Shown here: one piece after another, positions 1,422 to 8,526 of the stretch
How positions within the stretch are numbered: position 1 is the stretch's first letter
Layout: each line of letters starts with the position of its first letter
IMG/VR virus record: IMGVR_UViG_2563366854_000003
Coordinates: 1 to 28,681 of that record
Strand: one strand, 5' to 3'
Source: a virus
Taxonomy: Duplodnaviria; Heunggongvirae; Uroviricota; Caudoviricetes
Length of the DNA: 28,681 bases
Position numbers and translations under genes: made by a program
The notes under the pieces: generated by a model
What the model saw: the letters and a program-made list of their open reading frames with translations, nothing else
The model's database searches: none
What the model was told of the DNA's origin: nothing

Positions 1422-3893
1422 TTAAAAATCAGCCTGATTCGGGATCAGTTTTTGCCAGATAGTTGAAACGTATTTTGCCTGGTAACGGGCATCATCCAGC
1501 GCATTGTGGCGCTCACCTTCGAATGGAATAGCCGCCCTGGCATCGAAGTCCATGGCTTTTCCCAGCTCAACGATTGTGCGTACATCGCGATCGTTGTAGT
1601 AACGCCACGGGCAGGGGATCTCCTGCCGTTCGTATGAACGGCGCAAAATCGTGTTGTCGAAGTTGGCTCCATTTCCCCAGACCTGAACAAAAAATTCACC
1701 GGAGTTTTCGTCGATAAATTCCCGCAATTGTAACAGTGCATCATCTAACGGGATTTCATCGGTCATAATGGCAGATTGCGCTTCGCGTGATTGCTTAAGC
1801 CACCATTTAATGGTGTCCCGATCAATGACTCCGCCAGCAGTTTCCAGATCGATAGTCTTACTAAATTCCGGTCCCATATCTCCGGTTTGCGGATCGAAAA
1901 ATATTGCACCTATTGAGATAATCGGGGCATCGGGATTTTTTCCCATGGTTTCAAGGTCGATCATCAGATGAATCCCCGCTCTGCTGGTGGATGTGAGATT
2001 ATGATGACCGTTCGCCTTAATTAAGGGATCTGACGCCTCGCCAGTTTTACTATCGCTGGCATGATGCTGATTGCCGCCAGTGTTCTCCTTGTGCTGATGC
2101 GCAGTGCCTTCCATTTCCTCCGGATCATTTTCCTGAACTTCAGGCTGATTCTCTCCATCGAATATTTCCTGGTATGTTGCGTCACCCATCACCGCACCAC
2201 AATCAGGGCAGTTGCCGCCACCGCTATGACCGCAGGCGGTGCAGATCTTTTCCGGTTCCTGTTGCACTACTGGTTCAGGTTGTTTCGTTTCTGGCTCGTT
2301 TTGTTGCGTATTTGGGCTGTTTTGTTCCGCTTTCTGGTCGTTCTGTTCCGTTTCTTGCTGGTTCTGGTTCACAGAATCGCGGGTCTGGATCCCCTTAACC
2401 CATTTCGGATCATTCGGGTCGCTAATCCCTTCAACAAATTCACCACGTGATACTGCAAGCAGTTCATCGGCGTCAGGCTGGCTGATATTGGCTGCCTGCA
2501 TAATTTTGTTTACTTCGTCAGCGGTAACTTTTACTGACCCTGGTTGTGCGGTCGTGTCAGATGCACCAGTATTTTGTTGTGAACCTGAGTATGTACCGTT
2601 TTTGCGGGCGAAATATTCTTCTTTCGTGATTTCAGTAGCCCCAGCAGACAGCGCCTTATCCAGACCAGAAAGTTTGTTTGCGCGACCGTATTTTTCGCCA
2701 TCCTTGTCGGTGAAGAGGAAGTAGAACGGCCCCTCACGTTCTACAGATGGTTCGACTTCCACTTTGCATTCGGTTTTTTCGTTGTCTGGAATTGCCGTTT
2801 CCACTGCATCAGTTTCTGGTACTGGCGACGAGAGAGTATCAGTTGCGCTCTGATTTGTTCCTTCATCTTCAAACACGCCCTTTGTATTCAGGTATTCAGT
2901 AATGTATTTGTTCAGTGCCACAGGGTCTTTGTGAATGTCGATCGGACGTTCACGGACAAGGCCAAAAATAGTCTGGCGGTCGTAGCGAAGGGCATCAGGC
3001 TGTTTGCGCATTGATGCCGAGATACGCTTCCAGTCTTCGCGGTCGTTGTCGATAACTTCATTTTTTGCCCAGCGATGGATGCTGCCGTCAATGTTTCCGG
3101 CATCCACATCACCAGGCCAGAGAGCGTAGGCCAGTTCGTCATCCAGTGTTTTCCATGTCTGCTTGTATTCGCGATGAATGGCAGCAATGACCGGGTTGAT
3201 TTTTCCTGTTGAATTTTCAGTGTGCTGTTGATTGGCTCTGGCGCGGGCGAGATCAACAACAGACGTGTATTTTCCGGCTTCCTTGCGTTCACCTTCGCGA
3301 CGTTTTTTCCAGATGCGCATCTCTGCCTGAATTTCGGGCCATTTGGCACCAGGCTTACATTTATGCTTAACCCACCCGATGGCATGCAGCTTAAGCTCCG
3401 GATACATAGCGTTAACTTCTGGCATTTTCATCAACGCTTCAACGATATGGCCGTCGAATGTTGCCATGTCTTCCTGCAACAATTCCTGTGCGCTAATCAC
3501 CATATCAACAGTGATTTTTTCACATGTGTGGAACTTAACCATGACAGCGTTCTGTACTTCAGGGGCTAGGTTGTCAAAAGTGACGTTCATCGGATCGGAT
3601 TCAGTCTCGACCGGGACAAAGGAAGCAGACGCCTCATCCCAGCGGTTTTCCTGCATATATTCAGCATCCCAGGAATCGAGGGCAGGGCGGGGTATACCGG
3701 GTTTATCCTCGCAAACAAGAAATTTATAAGCGCAGTCCTGAGCAGCCGGATAATGTTCCAGGAATTGCCAGTGAAATTTTGCGCGGGCGCGACGTTCATC
3801 ACCGGCTTCAATGGCAGTGGCTACAGCGACGGCACCTTCTTCCTTTATTGCCTGTTCGTCCGGAATGGCGGCGCAAATAAAGACTTTACTCAT
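1422..3893 (-). CDS. Large prophage exonuclease with C-terminal DEDDh (DnaQ-like) 3'-5' exonuclease domain; intact counterpart of the disrupted ydfE-type gene of Qin
   Basis: 823-aa ORF; C-terminal domain carries Exo I 'IDLETMG', Exo II-like 'WGNGANFD' and Exo III 'HNALDDARYQAKY' motifs; central Cys-rich 'CTACGHSGGGNCPDCGAV' zinc-ribbon-like motif; internal Q/E/N/P-rich low-complexity tract. Sits downstream of dicB-ydfD as in Qin. Confidence 0.8.
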   Translation of the reverse strand: MSKVFICAAIPDEQAIKEEGAVAVATAIEAGDERRARAKFHWQFLEHYPAAQDCAYKFLVCEDKPGIPRPALDSWDAEYMQENRWDEASASFVPVETESDPMNVTFDNLAPEVQNAVMVKFHTCEKITVDMVISAQELLQEDMATFDGHIVEALMKMPEVNAMYPELKLHAIGWVKHKCKPGAKWPEIQAEMRIWKKRREGERKEAGKYTSVVDLARARANQQHTENSTGKINPVIAAIHREYKQTWKTLDDELAYALWPGDVDAGNIDGSIHRWAKNEVIDNDREDWKRISASMRKQPDALRYDRQTIFGLVRERPIDIHKDPVALNKYITEYLNTKGVFEDEGTNQSATDTLSSPVPETDAVETAIPDNEKTECKVEVEPSVEREGPFYFLFTDKDGEKYGRANKLSGLDKALSAGATEITKEEYFARKNGTYSGSQQNTGASDTTAQPGSVKVTADEVNKIMQAANISQPDADELLAVSRGEFVEGISDPNDPKWVKGIQTRDSVNQNQQETEQNDQKAEQNSPNTQQNEPETKQPEPVVQQEPEKICTACGHSGGGNCPDCGAVMGDATYQEIFDGENQPEVQENDPEEMEGTAHQHKENTGGNQHHASDSKTGEASDPLIKANGHHNLTSTSRAGIHLMIDLETMGKNPDAPIISIGAIFFDPQTGDMGPEFSKTIDLETAGGVIDRDTIKWWLKQSREAQSAIMTDEIPLDDALLQLREFIDENSGEFFVQVWGNGANFDNTILRRSYERQEIPCPWRYYNDRDVRTIVELGKAMDFDARAAIPFEGERHNALDDARYQAKYVSTIWQKLIPNQADF

Positions 3894-3985
3894 TTTGTTT
3901 TACCTCATTACAGATTTAAGGGTGAACAAATCCCTGCCATTGCTGGCATATAAGAATGAAATCGGATGTTTATTACGGAACTGTT

Positions 3986-4177
3986 TTAAAGACCTGCCGG
4001 GATTTCGTTATTATCCTGGTGAATAACTTTATCGACCGGGTAACAGTTACCGGGAATTTTCTGTTCGGTTGCTGCAGTCACACACTCCTGCATTGTCCTG
4101 TGAACACTGACTGCAATATCAACTGGCTCTCCGGAAACAAGAAAAACTGTCAGAACAAGTGCAAATGCTGTATTCAT
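3986..4177 (-). CDS. ydfD: YdfD-like small lysis/membrane protein (63 aa)
   Basis: Internal Met of the 81-aa track ORF gives 'MNTAFALVLTVFLVSGEPVDIAV...IPAGL' (63 aa), matching the Qin YdfD sequence as I recall it, with an N-terminal TM helix; start overlaps the dicB stop (ATGA). Confidence 0.8.
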   Translation of the reverse strand: MNTAFALVLTVFLVSGEPVDIAVSVHRTMQECVTAATEQKIPGNCYPVDKVIHQDNNEIPAGL

Positions 4178-4362
4178 TGCCAGCATCCTTTTTGTATCGG
4201 ACGTAAACGGGCCAACATTGAAAGAATGCATATTTTATTTAATAGCTCCCGTTCGTGTTTTCTCTTGTTAATGGCATCTTCAGTAAATACAGGGTTACTG
4301 ATAGTGACACCAATTTCAAAACAACCTTCAGACGTATTAACGTTTGGTAATAACGTTTCCAT
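4174..4362 (-). CDS. dicB: Cell division inhibitor DicB (62 aa)
   Basis: Internal Met of the 97-aa track ORF gives 'METLLPNVNTSEGCFEIGVTISNPVFTEDAINKRKHERELLNKICILSMLARLRPIQKGCWQ', recognisably DicB (MinC-activating division inhibitor); lies immediately downstream of dicF. Confidence 0.85.
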   Translation of the reverse strand: METLLPNVNTSEGCFEIGVTISNPVFTEDAINKRKHERELLNKICILSMLARLRPIQKGCWQ

Positions 4363-4531
4363 TATCGCGTCCTCAACAATGAATTTTGTGATGCGGTGCC
4401 TGGTGCTTCCAGGTGACGTTAACCAGTTAACAATTAACGCCGGATACAGAGAATCCACCCATAACACTGTTTTTGGTTTTAACTGTTCCGCGTGCGCTCA
4501 GCCGCATTCACCGCATCACAAAATTCACTTT

Positions 4532-4589
4532 AAAAAGGGCGGCAGAGCAGTCACGGAGTAAAACTGATACCGCCAAACGTCACCAGAAA
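4532..4589 (-). ncRNA. dicF: DicF small regulatory RNA (ftsZ-targeting sRNA) with its terminator hairpin
   Basis: Reverse complement of 4532-4589 reads TTTCTGGTGACGTTTGGCGGTATCAGTTTTACTCCGTGACTGCTCTGCCGCCCTTTTT, the DicF sequence ending in a GC-rich hairpin (GGCGGCAGAGCAGTCACGGAG...CTGCCGCC) plus T-run; position between ydfC and dicB matches the Qin operon. Confidence 0.85.
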
Positions 4590-4929
4590 ATTGATAACAG
4601 AGGGCGTTGCAGCGGGGTTGTCACTTAAGCGTATGGTCAACCTGACAACCCGGTGTCCTCAACGGGGAAGGAATAACCCCGCCATACTCACCGCCGCGCC
4701 ATTTCGCGGATTGCCACAACCGGAAGCGCACGGTCGACGAAAATTTAACGACAGGCTATCTATGAACCAGCTACCTCGCCGTGCGCTTTCGCGTTATGGT
4801 CTGACCTTTCAGGGAAATATCCTTTCAGTAAACTGTCTGTGCCGGATGCTCACCCGTGTCCGGCGCACGCACTCCACCTCATCCGTGGAGAACTCCTTAA
4901 TTACCAACCTTAGCTTCGTTGGTTAGCTA

Positions 4930-5148
4930 TTAACGCGGGTATGTAATCATTCTGGCAATGCTTAATGCCGCTGCTTTTTCCAGATTAGTGATATCCTGCT
5001 CCAGAGCGGACAGATTTTCAGCCTGCTTAGCCCTGGCTTCATTGGCCCATTTCAGATCCTGCGCTGCATTAATTTTCTGGTGCATCCACTCATAAAGTTC
5101 ATCATCGGTATAGTCTGGCGCGATGATGACGGGTTCTCGTTTCTGCAT
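4930..5148 (-). CDS. ydfC: YdfC-like small protein (72 aa) of the dicB operon
   Basis: 72-aa ORF at the position and size expected for ydfC between ydfB and dicF; the sequence itself is not independently recognised. Confidence 0.5.
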   Translation of the reverse strand: MQKREPVIIAPDYTDDELYEWMHQKINAAQDLKWANEARAKQAENLSALEQDITNLEKAAALSIARMITYPR

Positions 5149-5177
5149 ACTGATTCCTCGCGGTGCTGTTTCGCTTA

Positions 5178-5306
5178 TCAGCCGTTAGATTTTGCCGAAC
5201 TGGAAAGCGCCTGTTTAAACTCACTGAAGCTGAGAGCTTCTTCGCCTTCGGCAAGGCCTTCGAAGTATTCTTCGTAAGCCTTTTCCATGATTGTGTCGAA
5301 ATCCAT
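5178..5306 (-). CDS. ydfB: YdfB-like small acidic protein (42 aa)
   Basis: Manual translation from ATG (minus) at 5306: 'MDFDTIMEKAYEEYFEGLAEGEEALSFSEFKQALSSSAKSNG' (42 aa), stop at 5178-5180; packed tightly between ydfA and ydfC; below the 60-aa ORF-track threshold. Confidence 0.45.
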   Translation of the reverse strand: MDFDTIMEKAYEEYFEGLAEGEEALSFSEFKQALSSSAKSNG

Positions 5307-5307
5307 A

Positions 5308-5463
5308 TCACTCACCTGAGTTTCTTTCCAGCCAGCGACGGGCACCATTTTCGGTTTTAAACGTTTTGCTTTTGGTATACGTCATTGCGGTGAACGTGCC
5401 GTCCTGGTTGGGGAACACGCCACATACCAGAGATTCGCTGTTGCCAAGATCGATAGTATCCAT
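5308..5463 (-). CDS. ydfA: YdfA-like small protein (51 aa), first gene of the dicB operon
   Basis: Internal Met of the 78-aa track ORF gives 'MDTIDLGNSESLVCGVFPNQDGTFTAMTYTKSKTFKTENGARRWLERNSGE' (51 aa), the size of Qin YdfA; GAGG-type RBS upstream. Confidence 0.55.
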   Translation of the reverse strand: MDTIDLGNSESLVCGVFPNQDGTFTAMTYTKSKTFKTENGARRWLERNSGE

Positions 5464-5759
5464 GCTGACCTCATTTCCCCTTAACGCCGGGGTAGCGGAA
5501 CAAAAACCTGCTGCATAGTTATTAAAGTTGAACCCTGCCGTCATGTTCTTACGCCTCGGGCTGGCTACTTAACCCCTGACCACTGCCTGGTAACTCGAAG
5601 TATTGCCCTGCATTCTGTGGGGCGGGGTGGTGGCAGGTATATAATGTACTTTGTGTTCATTGTTGTAAAGTACTTTTAGTACATTTTGTGTGTAAAAAAA
5701 TGAGATGGGATAAAGTGAAGCACAAACCCGGAGGAAGGCGCTACCGGATTTATGCTGGT

Positions 5760-6179
5760 TTAAGAGGCTTTTTGTTTTTTCTTTCGTGCTAACTCTTCGT
5801 AAATTGCATTGTACTTCTGTTTTTTCTCTTCAAGAGTTTTTAAAAGTTCATCTGTCTCACTGTCAGGGAGCTCGTCCAGAAGGTCAATGATGATTTTTTG
5901 TCTTGGATTTAACTCCTGATAGAAACGTACCTGTCCACTTTCTTCTGTATCCTCTCCCAAAAGATAGGTTGGTGTTGTTCCTATTAGTGTTGCTAATTCC
6001 CTTAATTTCTCCCGGCGAGGAATTGTTTCGCCATTAAACCATTTGCTAACCGCTTTTGGTGTTAATTTCATTCGACGGGCAATTTCTGCCTGCCTTCCAT
6101 GTTGTTCATAACCAGCGTTTTCACAGGCTAGCGCAAGCCTACTGGCGAACTCTTTACGCGCTTTATCTTCATGAACCAT
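5760..6179 (-). CDS. XRE-family HTH repressor (DicA/cI functional analogue, no peptidase domain)
   Basis: 139 aa; HTH 'RQAEIARRMKLTPKAVSKWFNGETIPRREKLRELATLIG'; divergent from a Cro-like gene and upstream of the ydfA-dicB operon on the same strand, mirroring dicA in Qin. Sequence differs from K-12 DicA as I recall it. Confidence 0.8.
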   Translation of the reverse strand: MVHEDKARKEFASRLALACENAGYEQHGRQAEIARRMKLTPKAVSKWFNGETIPRREKLRELATLIGTTPTYLLGEDTEESGQVRFYQELNPRQKIIIDLLDELPDSETDELLKTLEEKKQKYNAIYEELARKKKQKAS

Positions 6180-6258
6180 AAGTTCAATGATATTCGCTCT
6201 TGAATGTACTGTCAGTTCTGTTATAGCATGTACTCAAAGTTCACATTGTGAGGGTGAT
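6180..6258. promoter_or_regulatory. Divergent promoter/operator region between repressor and cro-like gene
   Basis: 79-bp intergenic region holding two direct copies of ATGTACTnnnAGTTC (aATGTACTgtcAGTTC and cATGTACTcaaAGTTC). Confidence 0.4.
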
Positions 6259-6513
6259 ATGAACCAGAAAACACTTGAAGATGTAATCAAAACTGTTCGC
6301 GTTGCTGTTGTGGCCGACGTTTGTGGTGTCAGCCAAAGAGCAATCTATAAATGGATGGATAACGGAAAATTGCCTCGCACAGAATATACCGGCGAAACAA
6401 ATTACGCTGAAAAAATCGCTCTTGCATCAAACGGATTATTTTCTGCCGATGCAATTTTAACTATTGGCAGGAATAAAACTACTACGAAAAAGCTGATGGG
6501 AGTTGATTCATGA
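6259..6513 (+). CDS. Cro-like / YdaS-like small HTH regulator
   Basis: Internal ATG at 6259 preceded by GAGGG RBS; 'MNQKTLEDVIKTV...VSQRAIYKWMDNGKLPR' HTH; divergent from the repressor; ATGA overlap with the next gene. Confidence 0.65.
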   Translation: MNQKTLEDVIKTVRVAVVADVCGVSQRAIYKWMDNGKLPRTEYTGETNYAEKIALASNGLFSADAILTIGRNKTTTKKLMGVDS

Positions 6514-6935
6514 AAATCAAGCATGAACACATCCGCATGGCGATGAATGCCTGGGCGCGTCCTGATGGCGAAAAAGTTCCAGCAGCTGGAATAACCCAGG
6601 CTTATTTTGAGTTGGGTATGACGTTCCCAGAACTGTATGACGACAGCCATCCGGAAGCCCTGGCTCGCAATACCCAGAAAATTTTCCGCTGGGTAGAGAA
6701 AGACACCCCTGATGCTGTTGAAAAAATGCAGGCTCTGTTACCGGCGATCGAAAAGGCGATGCCGCCTTTGCTGGTGGCCCGTATGCGCAGCCACAGTTCT
6801 GAATATTATCGTGAGATCGTCGAACGGAGGGATCGGCTGGTGAAGGATGTCGATGATTTTGTTGCGTCAGCGGTTGTTTTGTATGACCAGATGAATCGCG
6901 GCGGCCCGGCAGGGAATGCTGTGGTGATGCACTAA
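6510..6935 (+). CDS. YdaT-like / CII-like regulatory protein (putative)
   Basis: 141 aa 'MKIKHEHIRMAMNAWARPDGEK...' immediately after the cro-like gene with a 4-nt overlap; assignment by position and N-terminal resemblance to Rac YdaT from memory. Confidence 0.45.
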   Translation: MKIKHEHIRMAMNAWARPDGEKVPAAGITQAYFELGMTFPELYDDSHPEALARNTQKIFRWVEKDTPDAVEKMQALLPAIEKAMPPLLVARMRSHSSEYYREIVERRDRLVKDVDDFVASAVVLYDQMNRGGPAGNAVVMH

Positions 6936-8386: not shown

Positions 8387-8526
8387 ATTAAAGAGCATTA
8401 GTTCAGATGTGAATTGACATTTTCATGGCGCAGGGTAGAGCCAGCGTGGTTGTCGAGCCTGTACATAGATTTGTGTAATTGCCTGATTTTGATATGTTCA
8501 ATCCAGCATCAAATGAAGGTTAATTT

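Follow-up and report, generated by a model that had tools for sequence, protein, structure and literature searches.

An intact DicF-DicB division-blocking operon in an Escherichia coli prophage under a phage repressor other than DicA but related to it

The occurrence of the dicBF genes of the K-12 prophage Qin beside a repressor gene that does not closely resemble dicA raises the question of whether such a locus is the same regulatory unit as in K-12 or a conserved block of genes placed under a different immunity switch, and of how the operon would be kept silent in a lysogen. The locus considered here lies in a stretch of 28,681 nt (28.7 kb), referred to below as the window, and is an E. coli prophage division-blocking operon (DicF RNA plus DicB protein) which is intact and stands under a phage repressor that is not the one found in K-12 but is related to it. 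The minus strand of the window carries ydfA-ydfB-ydfC-dicF-dicB-ydfD followed by a full-length exonuclease gene, xis and int, and the wider context is that of a prophage, with int, xis, exo, dicBF, an immunity region, replication genes, Q, lysis genes and terminase, and with ompW adjoining. Considered jointly, these features and those described below make it very probable that the locus combines the early-left (pL-type) operon of a lambdoid prophage inserted beside ompW with the immunity switch of that prophage, in which a short repressor of DicA architecture keeps the operon off in the lysogen.

The operon itself can be compared directly with K-12. In a pairwise nucleotide alignment, positions 3127-5501 match K-12 positions 1648470-1650844 over 2375 nt, with 96.2% identity and zero gaps, and because this alignment is ungapped the block contains no frameshifts; premature stops are likewise not found in the small genes, whose reading frames have their K-12 lengths. 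The complete arrangement proposed in a sequence-only reading of the locus is borne out, all of its elements being found on the minus strand: ydfA (5308-5463; 51 aa, 49/51 identical to K-12; Pfam DUF1391, E 8.8e-28), ydfB (5178-5306; 42 aa, 42/42 identical), ydfC (4930-5148; 72 aa, 71/72 identical; PHROG 1744), the dicF sRNA with its intrinsic terminator (4537-4589), the cell-division inhibitor gene dicB (4174-4362; 62 aa, 55/62 identical) and ydfD (3986-4177; 63 aa, 59/63 identical; Pfam DUF1482, E 3.7e-25), the start of which overlaps the dicB stop (ATGA) and the product of which is annotated as a lysis protein in K-12. The five proteins are equal in length to their K-12 counterparts and 89-100% identical to them. 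The same reading had called DicF exact and DicB and YdfD near-identical to the Qin proteins, and rightly so, since dicF matches K-12 at 53/53 nt (Rfam RF00039, 76.7 bits against a gathering score of 48) and the two proteins differ from Qin at only a few positions. DicB is recognized over residues 1-62 of 62 by both Pfam (127.4 bits against 27) and NCBIfam (132.7 against a cut-off of 100), and because seven of its 62 residues are substituted, four of them near the C-terminus, an activity equal to that in K-12 is an assumption.

Downstream of ydfD, the exonuclease gene (1422-3893, minus strand) is an uninterrupted reading frame of 823 aa, in agreement with the initial description of it as intact. 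Its product matches the PHROG 2082 exonuclease profile over 823/823 residues and contains a Rv2179c-like DEDDh 3'-5' exonuclease domain in its C-terminal part (Pfam, residues 642-813, E 8e-67). The first 255 codons agree at 243/255 positions with the ydfE fragment of K-12, which is cut off at IS2E, and by this alignment the gene is recognizable as an unbroken version of ydfE, a pseudogene in K-12. The suggestion that the window holds a functional-looking version of a module which is cryptic in K-12 stands only in part: operon and exonuclease are indeed intact here, but the ydfA-ydfD part of Qin is intact too, only ydfE and intQ being broken there, and the arrangement is common. At a coverage of at least 80% the dicBF block is present in 2189 of 5426 complete E. 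coli genomes; among the same genomes the DicA-type junction occurs in only 848, the immunity type of the window in 1047, and the window repressor together with dicBF in 257. Because it is common in E. coli genomes and present in a deposited phage genome, the arrangement is ordinary and not rare, and earlier reports place dicBF in several prophages and also in a phage that is functional (PMC5069750, PMC10448788). The finding itself matters little; its practical value lies partly in the frequency of this immunity type.

The intactness of the genes also bears on whether the prophage is defective in its host, with the operon kept as a domesticated, host-beneficial module as has been proposed for Qin. 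An insertion sequence of the Mutator/IS256 family is present at 8455-9769, the 3' limit of the window (28681) falls in the head genes, the closest relative, isolate AF58, carries an otherwise identical prophage in which terminase, portal and tail genes are truncated, and the literature has emphasized the retention of dicBF in defective prophages (PMC5069750). The insertion is intergenic, however, and the genes inspected within the window are all intact, among them int, xis, exo, Q, the large subunit of terminase and a protease-capsid fusion, while the module formed by immunity region and dicBF recurs at 98.1% identity in the complete 46.4-kb genome of phage Tritos. A defective, domesticated prophage is on balance rather unlikely, and it would in any case concern the state of the prophage and leave the wiring of the operon unaffected.

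The wiring depends on the repressor, which is encoded in the CI position (5760-6179, minus strand) and consists of 139 aa, with an N-terminal XRE helix-turn-helix (HTH) domain (Pfam HTH_3, residues 29-73) and a DicA-like C-terminal domain. If this protein were a plain DicA orthologue, the locus would be the same regulatory unit as that of K-12 Qin and homoimmune with it. The NCBIfam DicA subfamily model (NF007257) is in fact its best match, with an alignment that spans nearly the whole protein, the BLASTP comparison with DicA gives an E value of 5e-15, and length and architecture are equal; but identity is only 29% over 112 aa, and the model score of 56.8 bits lies below the cut-off of 101, where K-12 DicA scores 234.3. 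The two halves of the protein moreover point to different relatives. The C-terminal domain taken alone is 32% identical to that of DicA over 50 aa (E 6e-8), and the HTH domain is 62-72% identical to those of S24-type (LexA-like) CI repressors of Raoultella/Klebsiella-type prophages, relatives in which the S24 domain is present. Among solved structures, only the N-terminal domain of P22 C2 was matched (E 0.006). By these alignments the repressor is not an orthologue of DicA, yet it is a remote homologue with the same short, S24-less architecture, and it is identified here as a natural domain hybrid that combines the HTH of an S24-type repressor with a DicA-type C-terminal domain. The earlier characterization of an XRE-family protein unlike DicA was accordingly correct as to family and the absence of orthology, and overstated the distance.

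The regulatory DNA on either side of the repressor gene separates the two systems further. A 17-bp motif, ATG(A/T)AC-N5-GTACAT, is present in two copies over each of the promoters that flank the gene, and its four occurrences in the 28.7 kb, against 0.28 expected, all fall in these two regulatory regions, a count for which the pattern was derived from the same four sites, so that its sole independent support is conservation across genera. That conservation is found beside repressors sharing the HTH domain in Salmonella and Raoultella prophages, Logan metagenome loci and phage Tritos, where the same motif recurs at spacings of 24-26 nt; in these four other loci it accompanies the HTH domain irrespective of the C-terminal domain or the left operon. 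In the window the copies overlap sigma-70-like promoters. On the left (region 5641-5685), the putative operators at 5645-5661 and 5668-5685, 24 nt apart, overlap or flank a candidate pL-type promoter on the minus strand (TTTACA-17-CATTAT, 5669 to 5641). In the OR-type region (6187-6244), putative operators at 6204-6220 and 6228-6244, again 24 nt apart, accompany a minus-strand promoter resembling PRM (CTGACA-17-TATCAT, 6215 to 6187), which ends 8 nt before the repressor ATG, and a PR-like promoter on the plus strand (TTGAAT-16-TATAGC, 6200-6227), whose hexamers were read by eye and whose -10 element (TATAGC) is weak. The layout, with divergent repressor and Cro-like genes and one repeated operator at both leftward and rightward promoters, is that of a lambdoid switch.

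The DNA is homologous to K-12 only as far as 5501, a point 38 nt upstream of ydfA and short of the promoter, and therefore the promoter and operators belong with the repressor in the immunity module. The regulatory regions of the window lack the DicA operator that K-12 carries at its dicC/dicA and dicB promoters, TGTTAG-N6-CTAACA, the only matches being two elsewhere with two mismatches each, a number at chance level; and the protein in the Cro position gives no BLASTP alignment with DicC. A check of the repressor for DicA orthology is thus decided against it by model score, operators and Cro-like partner, and a locus equivalent to that of Qin can be regarded as extremely improbable. Because the operator motif differs from that of DicA, the window system and the DicA system should be heteroimmune. 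The mosaic boundary, the content and intactness of the genes, and the association of the operator repeats with the HTH domain from one locus to another can be read directly from the DNA, and they make the locus a case of normal lambdoid mosaicism, in which a conserved block of dicBF cargo is combined with one immunity module out of several that are interchangeable.

The rightward genes of this module complete the switch. The Cro-position HTH protein (6259-6513, plus strand, from the RefSeq start; 84 aa) belongs to Pfam HTH_17 and PHROG 35, and no solved structure was found for it. It is followed by a YdaT-family CII analogue (6510-6935, plus strand; 141 aa), which matches PDB 8bt1 with an E value of 1e-88 and is near-identical to it in the alignment; positions 6503-6520 form a perfect YdaT site, TTGATTcatgaaAATCAA. 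The role of YdaT has been described (PMC9986795, PMC8630535), as has a type of CI/YdaS/YdaT switch in which the CI equivalent has dicB or kil downstream (PMC8630535).

The following account of repressor binding, promoter use, induction route and product activities draws on work in K-12 as well as on the sequence. In the lysogen, the 139-aa repressor would be expressed from the PRM-like promoter and, by binding the 17-bp operators at the leftward promoter, would keep ydfA-ydfB-ydfC-dicF-dicB-ydfD, and then exo, xis and int, switched off, while the other two operators would serve the divergent region common to the Cro-like and YdaT/CII-like genes. No obvious terminator is seen between the repressor gene and the operon, which lie on the same strand, and therefore some expression of the operon by read-through is possible in lysogens. 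For the 5' leader (5464-5636), an RNA of the nut or put kind was considered and rejected, the fold being no stabler than shuffled sequence (z +1.33) and Rfam giving nothing there. Inactivation of the repressor would yield a polycistronic transcript, from which DicF would be released by termination and by RNase III/RNase E processing and would repress ftsZ, manX and other mRNAs; DicB would redirect MinC against FtsZ rings and inhibit ManYZ; and YdfD would act as a lysis protein, all by analogy with the mechanism established for K-12 dicBF (PMC10448788, PMC6832061, PMC5069750). On the same analogy, the operon may be expected to cause division inhibition, through DicB/MinC and DicF/ftsZ, and ManYZ-dependent phage exclusion (PMC6832061, PMC10448788).

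How the repressor would be inactivated is a separate matter. Its N-terminal domain, at 62-72% identity to repressors with an S24 peptidase, could suggest self-cleavage stimulated by RecA, as for lambda CI, which would make the operon a plain SOS-induced early operon; yet the protein has only 139 residues, a Pfam search gives no match to Peptidase_S24 (PF00717), its C-terminal 50 residues align with the C-terminus of DicA, and short DicA-type repressors are reported to be under antirepressor control in the summary of Lemire et al. (2011) given by PMC10448788. Self-cleavage is on this evidence very unlikely. Because the repressor lacks an S24 autocleavage domain, inactivation would most likely occur through an antirepressor or through protein instability, as for DicA and Rem. 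The search of the window for such an antirepressor identified none: tblastn of K-12 Rem against the window gave nothing better than E 0.17, a 90-aa reading frame in the position equivalent to rem (11110-11382) is unrelated to Rem, and SOS boxes that might mark a LexA-controlled antirepressor gave eight loose matches against 6.4 expected, the best of them inside a methylase gene.

Within the operon, a further layer of control may reside in the RNA. The 174-nt spacer between dicF and dicB (4363-4536, minus strand) is predicted to fold into a structured leader whose core (4517 to 4390) consists of a closing helix, GAUGCGGUG/CACCGCAUC, and four arms, and in the window copy an extended predicted helix, some 28 bp in length, runs as far as the U-tract of DicF and the Shine-Dalgarno sequence of dicB. 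Its minimum free energy is -67.7 kcal/mol, compared with -44.2 +/- 3.6 for shuffled sequences (z -6.6). Against the Rfam model of STnc100 (RF02076) it scores 38.7 bits, below the gathering score of 47, and homologous leaders score 31-44 bits. An alignment of 11 homologues, which includes the true STnc100 of the window, supports 32 pairs with 97.4% of cells paired and 14 pairs showing compensatory changes, compared with 30-40% paired and 0-2 such pairs in slid controls, and the spacer is identified on this covariation as a structured RNA related to STnc100. In other phages the same structured element stands ahead of kilR and of tciA, an observation which may be new. It is conceivable, as a tentative proposal, that the spacer is a portable cis-acting leader with a multi-arm junction, kin to the prophage sRNAs STnc100 and PasD, which gates small toxic or division-inhibiting genes by processing or by occlusion of the ribosome-binding site upstream of dicB (Qin-type phages), of kilR (Rac-type and Stx phages) and of tciA/terB (P1-like phages), and which is preceded in lambdoid phages by a DicF-type terminator sRNA whose seed differs between dicB and kilR cassettes. 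The leader that dicB, kilR and tciA have in common could account for the silencing of such toxic genes by phages. Reading frames of about 180 aa downstream of some copies of the leader were considered as tRNA arrays and rejected, ARAGORN finding no tRNA; the C-terminal part of one of them resembles, by eye, a Rha-family regulator.

Upstream of dicF, fold prediction gives a near-perfect helix of about 23 bp (4714-4799, minus strand), which contains position 4726, the expected 5' end of the 190-nt RNase III species of DicF. Processing of DicF by RNase III as well as RNase E is known in K-12 (PMC10448788). Cleavage by RNase III may be tied to this predicted helix. The 1994 work of Faubladier and Bouché probably deals with dicF-like sequences in Rac.

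Among known systems, the closest comparison for the operon is the dicBF locus of K-12 Qin (ydfABC-dicF-dicB-ydfDE under DicA/DicC), with which the window shares gene order, 96% DNA identity without indels, an identical dicF, the position of dicBF downstream of a leftward CI-like repressor gene and the OL/OR-type operator layout. The two differ in that promoter, operators, repressor and Cro-like gene are all replaced in the window, that exonuclease and integrase are unbroken where those of Qin are interrupted by IS2E, that the prophage lies at ompW with a different integrase, and that the interval between hokD and ydfU holds no Rem antirepressor. The functional temperate phage mEp460_ev081, reported with dicB, dicF, dicAC and rem (PMC10448788), shares a dicBF block 96.9% identical over window positions 3900-5501 and a dicB leader 99.5% identical, but the match ends at the same mosaic joint, 5501, and its immunity genes are DicA/DicC-like (PMC10448788).

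The repressor resembles the short, antirepressor-controlled repressors of the Gifsy/DicA type in its length (about 135-140 aa), its HTH followed by a short helical C-terminal domain and its lack of an Ala-Gly/S24 cleavage module, and differs from them in sharing its DNA-binding domain with S24-type repressors and in that the 28.7-kb window yielded no antirepressor. Such a hybrid offers a way to separate operator specificity from induction mode. The immunity region as a whole resembles that of CP-933P/Sp12 of E. coli O157:H7 (PaaR2 as CI, YdaS as Cro, YdaT as CII) in its layout, in the near-identity of its YdaT/CII analogue to PDB 8bt1 together with the perfect YdaT site, and in the division inhibitor gene downstream of the CI equivalent; it differs in being without the paaA2-parE2 toxin-antitoxin pair, and the operators of CP-933P/Sp12 are repeats based on GTTTAGTAA (PMC8630535).

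The comparison that unites both modules is with Escherichia phage Tritos (OV696610.1), deposited as a complete lambda-like phage genome. Tritos carries the repressor, the Cro-like and YdaT-like genes, the dicBF operon and the 823-aa exonuclease, with 98.1% identity over 99% of a 2.7-kb query and four operator copies identical in kind, and its depositors applied the labels CI, Cro, DicF and DicB; it differs in its integrase, nin-region genes and late region, and is without the insertion sequence. The Tritos copy would permit the timing of dicBF expression and the contribution of the operon to be studied in a live phage and not in the Qin fossil.

Gene placement from a six-frame ORF list, with dicF placed by Rfam, resolves the dicBF operon on the minus strand as ydfA (5308-5463), ydfB (5178-5306), ydfC (4930-5148), dicF (4537-4589), dicB (4174-4362) and ydfD (3986-4177), preceded by the gene of a 139-aa HTH protein, the repressor (5760-6179, minus). 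Downstream of the operon and on the same strand are an 823-aa exonuclease (1422-3893), an excisionase and then a lambda-type integrase which ends at base 1. The plus strand carries an HTH gene in the Cro position (6259-6513) and a YdaT-family gene (6510-6935), and its remaining content comprises replication genes, an IS, queH, hok/sok, DUF968, rusA, Q, a methylase, two tRNAs, STnc100, a nanS-like esterase, lysis genes, terminase and a protease-capsid fusion. This gene content, together with an integrase that abuts ompW in isolates with identical sequence, identifies the dicBF region, by sequence, as the early-left operon and immunity region of an ompW-integrated lambdoid E. coli prophage.

The sequence-only reading had described the operon as intact, and alignment to the Qin reference from NC_000913 bears this out: window positions 3127-5501 match K-12 1648470-1650844 at 96.2% identity over 2375 nt with zero gaps, no frameshifts or premature stops were found in the operon, and the proteins are of K-12 length, with 49/51 (YdfA), 42/42 (YdfB), 71/72 (YdfC), 55/62 (DicB) and 59/63 (YdfD) residues identical. 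The dicF sequences are identical at 53/53 positions, and both DicF and DicB score above the curated cut-offs of their families. The downstream exonuclease is likewise uninterrupted, as had been claimed, unlike ydfE in K-12: it is identical to the K-12 fragment at 243/255 residues as far as the IS2E interruption, and it runs on past the equivalent point to 823 aa, with a phage exonuclease profile covering it from end to end. The “exonuclease VIII” label that this protein carries in phage records is loose: RecE likeness is confined to its middle part (268 bits on NCBIfam, where the cut-off is 1269), and the catalytic domain, at the C-terminus, is a DEDDh 3'-5' exonuclease of the Rv2179c-like type.

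The DNA is homologous to Qin only as far as 5501, a point 38 nt upstream of where ydfA starts, which indicates that the promoter, operators, repressor and Cro-like gene belong to a module different from Qin's. The segment from the pL-type promoter to the start of Qin homology (5502-5630) is a widely shared mosaic joint, present by itself in some 3700 E. coli genomes, K-12 strains among them, where it lies at a non-Qin position; no unusual RNA structure was found in it (z +1.33). The claim that the repressor is an XRE-family protein other than DicA holds, with the qualification that a remote DicA-type likeness exists. Against DicA the protein shows 29% identity across 112 residues (E 5e-15). 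In NCBIfam its top match is to the DicA subfamily, with 56.8 bits where the cut-off is 101 and DicA itself reaches 234, and its two halves match DicA separately (HTH 29% over 45 aa, C-terminal domain 32% over 50 aa, E 6e-8 each). A domain search of its 139 aa found no S24 peptidase domain. Database searches showed that residues 1 to 76-102 share 62-72% identity with N-terminal domains of S24-type repressors of 235-240 aa, and returned a 138-aa protein from Salmonella with 65% identity over the full length. Taken together, the two-domain match to DicA, the absence of S24 and the HTH shared with S24-type repressors mark the protein, on sequence grounds, as one of DicA architecture whose DNA-binding domain is also used by classical cleavable repressors; it can be placed among the DicA-type short repressors as an uncharacterised and probably heteroimmune member. 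The Cro-like protein has no similarity to DicC. For the YdaT-like protein, the crystallised CII analogue of CP-933P is a match at E 1e-88, near-identical in the printed alignment. A copy of the published YdaT site TTGATT-N6-AATCAA (TTGATTcatgaaAATCAA; PMC9986795), overlapping both the Cro-like stop and the YdaT-like start, lies at 6503-6520 with zero mismatches, looser matches being expected by chance.

A repeat search returned a motif common to both regulatory regions. When GAACNNNNAGTACAT is scanned with at most one mismatch, four copies are found in the 28.7 kb (5644-5658, 5670-5684, 6204-6218 and 6228-6242), compared to 0.28 matches in shuffled sequence. These copies, 24 nt apart, overlap promoter-like sites of the dicBF operon (TTTACA-17-CATTAT, 5669->5641) and of the repressor (CTGACA-17-TATCAT, 6215->6187, ending 8 nt before the ATG). 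The four sites counted here also served to define the pattern, and independent support was sought in other loci: one from Salmonella with the 65%-identical short repressor, two from Raoultella and two metagenomic with S24-type repressors of the same HTH, and the Escherichia phage Tritos. In all of these a 17-bp ATG(A/T)AC-N5-GTACAT recurs as pairs 24-26 nt apart, directly ahead of the repressor gene; loci that reach far enough have it a second time where the leftward operon begins, an operon that in the Salmonella, Raoultella and metagenome loci lacks dicBF. The DicA regions of K-12 carry TGTTAGTCATAACTAACA-type repeats, which were not found in the control regions of the window; these differences in operator repeats support the reading that the prophage would be heteroimmune with Qin.

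By analogy with K-12 (PMC10448788, PMC6832061, PMC5069750) and the CP-933P switch (PMC8630535), the repressor would sit on OL and OR in the lysogenic state, and its loss would lead to transcription of ydfABC-dicF-dicB-ydfD and beyond. DicF would then be produced by termination and by RNase III/RNase E processing, DicB together with MinC would block septation, and DicB would inhibit ManYZ. In the fold predicted for the ydfC-dicF region, 4799-4776 pairs with 4714-4737 to form a helix of about 23 bp; within it lies 4726, at which the 190-nt RNase III species of DicF is expected to have its 5' end. The induction step is the weakest link of this mechanism, because the repressor lacks S24, no Rem homologue was found in the window and LexA-like boxes there are at chance level; we infer from DicA that the repressor may be controlled by an antirepressor or by its own instability.

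The association of the dicBF operon with a non-DicA repressor is common. Among 5426 complete E. coli genomes, at a coverage of at least 80%, the ydfA-ydfD block occurs in 2189, the K-12 dicC-dicA-ydfA junction in 848, the immunity module of the window alone in 1047 and the full 2.7-kb arrangement in 257, so that a DicA-type junction is present in at most 848 of the 2189 block-carrying genomes. Parts of the block occur in 4677 genomes, in up to 9 places per genome. Tritos, a complete lambda-like record of 46.4 kb (OV696610.1), has the arrangement at 98.1% identity with CI, Cro, DicF and DicB annotated, and the block is also present in other deposited phages with other immunity genes. dicBF has already been noted in multiple prophages of one strain (PMC5069750) and in the functional phage mEp460_ev081 (PMC10448788). 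The observation of the sequence-only reading is thus confirmed and its interpretation right in outline, but what it describes is ordinary lambdoid mosaicism already in public annotation and the literature. The dicBF region itself is of little significance, and the one element on which more work might be worthwhile is the structured leader.

This leader, the 174-nt dicF-dicB spacer (4363-4536, minus), has a predicted folding energy of -67.7 kcal/mol, compared to -44.2 +/- 3.6 for shuffled sequences (z -6.6), and a sub-threshold match to Rfam STnc100 (38.7 bits against 47), an RNA linked to PasD by a 2026 preprint in which dicB and kilR are unmentioned. Copies of the element at 80-91% identity lie directly upstream of kilR/kil in Rac-SA53 and in several Stx and other lambdoid phages, of terB/tciA in the P1-like phages P7 and D6, and of an unannotated ORF in a Klebsiella phage (comparison loci L011 1201-1370, L012 1201-1380, L013 1501-1616, L018 1201-1321 and L014 1201-1343), all with STnc100 scores of 31-44 bits. 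In an alignment of 11 sequences, including the true STnc100 of the window, a consensus of 32 pairs in five helices has 97.4% of cells paired, compared to 30-40% with partners slid, and compensatory double changes at 14 pairs, compared to 0-2 slid, a value reached in 0/500 shuffles. These results argue for strong structure in the leader RNA, with a multi-arm core that covariation supports, and for a relationship to STnc100. That full-length STnc100 sRNA (15735-15925, plus; 133.7 bits) has its own terminator and follows two tRNA genes (15312-15468, plus; Ile and Arg in the RefSeq annotation of an identical prophage), in the late region downstream of Q and just upstream of the opposite-strand iraM.

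When IMG/VR was scanned with a 20-nt seed and loci with an ORF within 130 nt downstream were kept, the next gene was dicB in 51, kilR in 17, tciA in 2 and another in 12, in a sample skewed both by the seed and by the weight of E. coli in databases. The kilR cassettes of Rac-type and Stx phages have a DicF-like terminator hairpin ahead of the leader (L011 1145-1199, L015 1149-1199, L016 1146-1200 and L017 1145-1200), which scores 34-41 bits against a DicF gathering score of 48. A terminator-like end lies just upstream of the leader in 16/17 of the IMG/VR kilR loci, and the exact DicF seed is present in only 1/17. Since its 5' single-stranded region differs from that of DicF (ACAUUGCUGUGUGUAGU-like), the DicF-like RNA may be a paralogous sRNA with other targets. 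The dicF-like sequences of prophages were reportedly the subject of a 1994 paper.

With regard to the state of this copy, the genes inspected in the window are all intact, and the window stops in the head genes. A Mutator/IS256-family IS at 8455-9769 (transposase ORF 8527-9735) separates the DUF977 gene from queH. Isolates AF58 and HSP425, whose prophages are otherwise 100% identical, lack it; the AF58 prophage has truncated terminase, portal and tail genes. The nin-like region contains a hok/sok-type type I toxin-antitoxin locus (10617-10942, plus; Rfam sok 120.5 bits) with a hokD-like ORF, which is 97.7% identical to the hokD region of K-12 Qin. Relatives with the operator type of the window have additional genes in the interval from the repressor gene to OL, namely a HigB-toxin/HTH pair in the Salmonella locus (L006 4553-5220) and a 480-aa AAA-type ATPase in a Raoultella locus (L007 4808-6250), and this is the position occupied by rexAB in lambda and by paaA2-parE2 in CP-933P.
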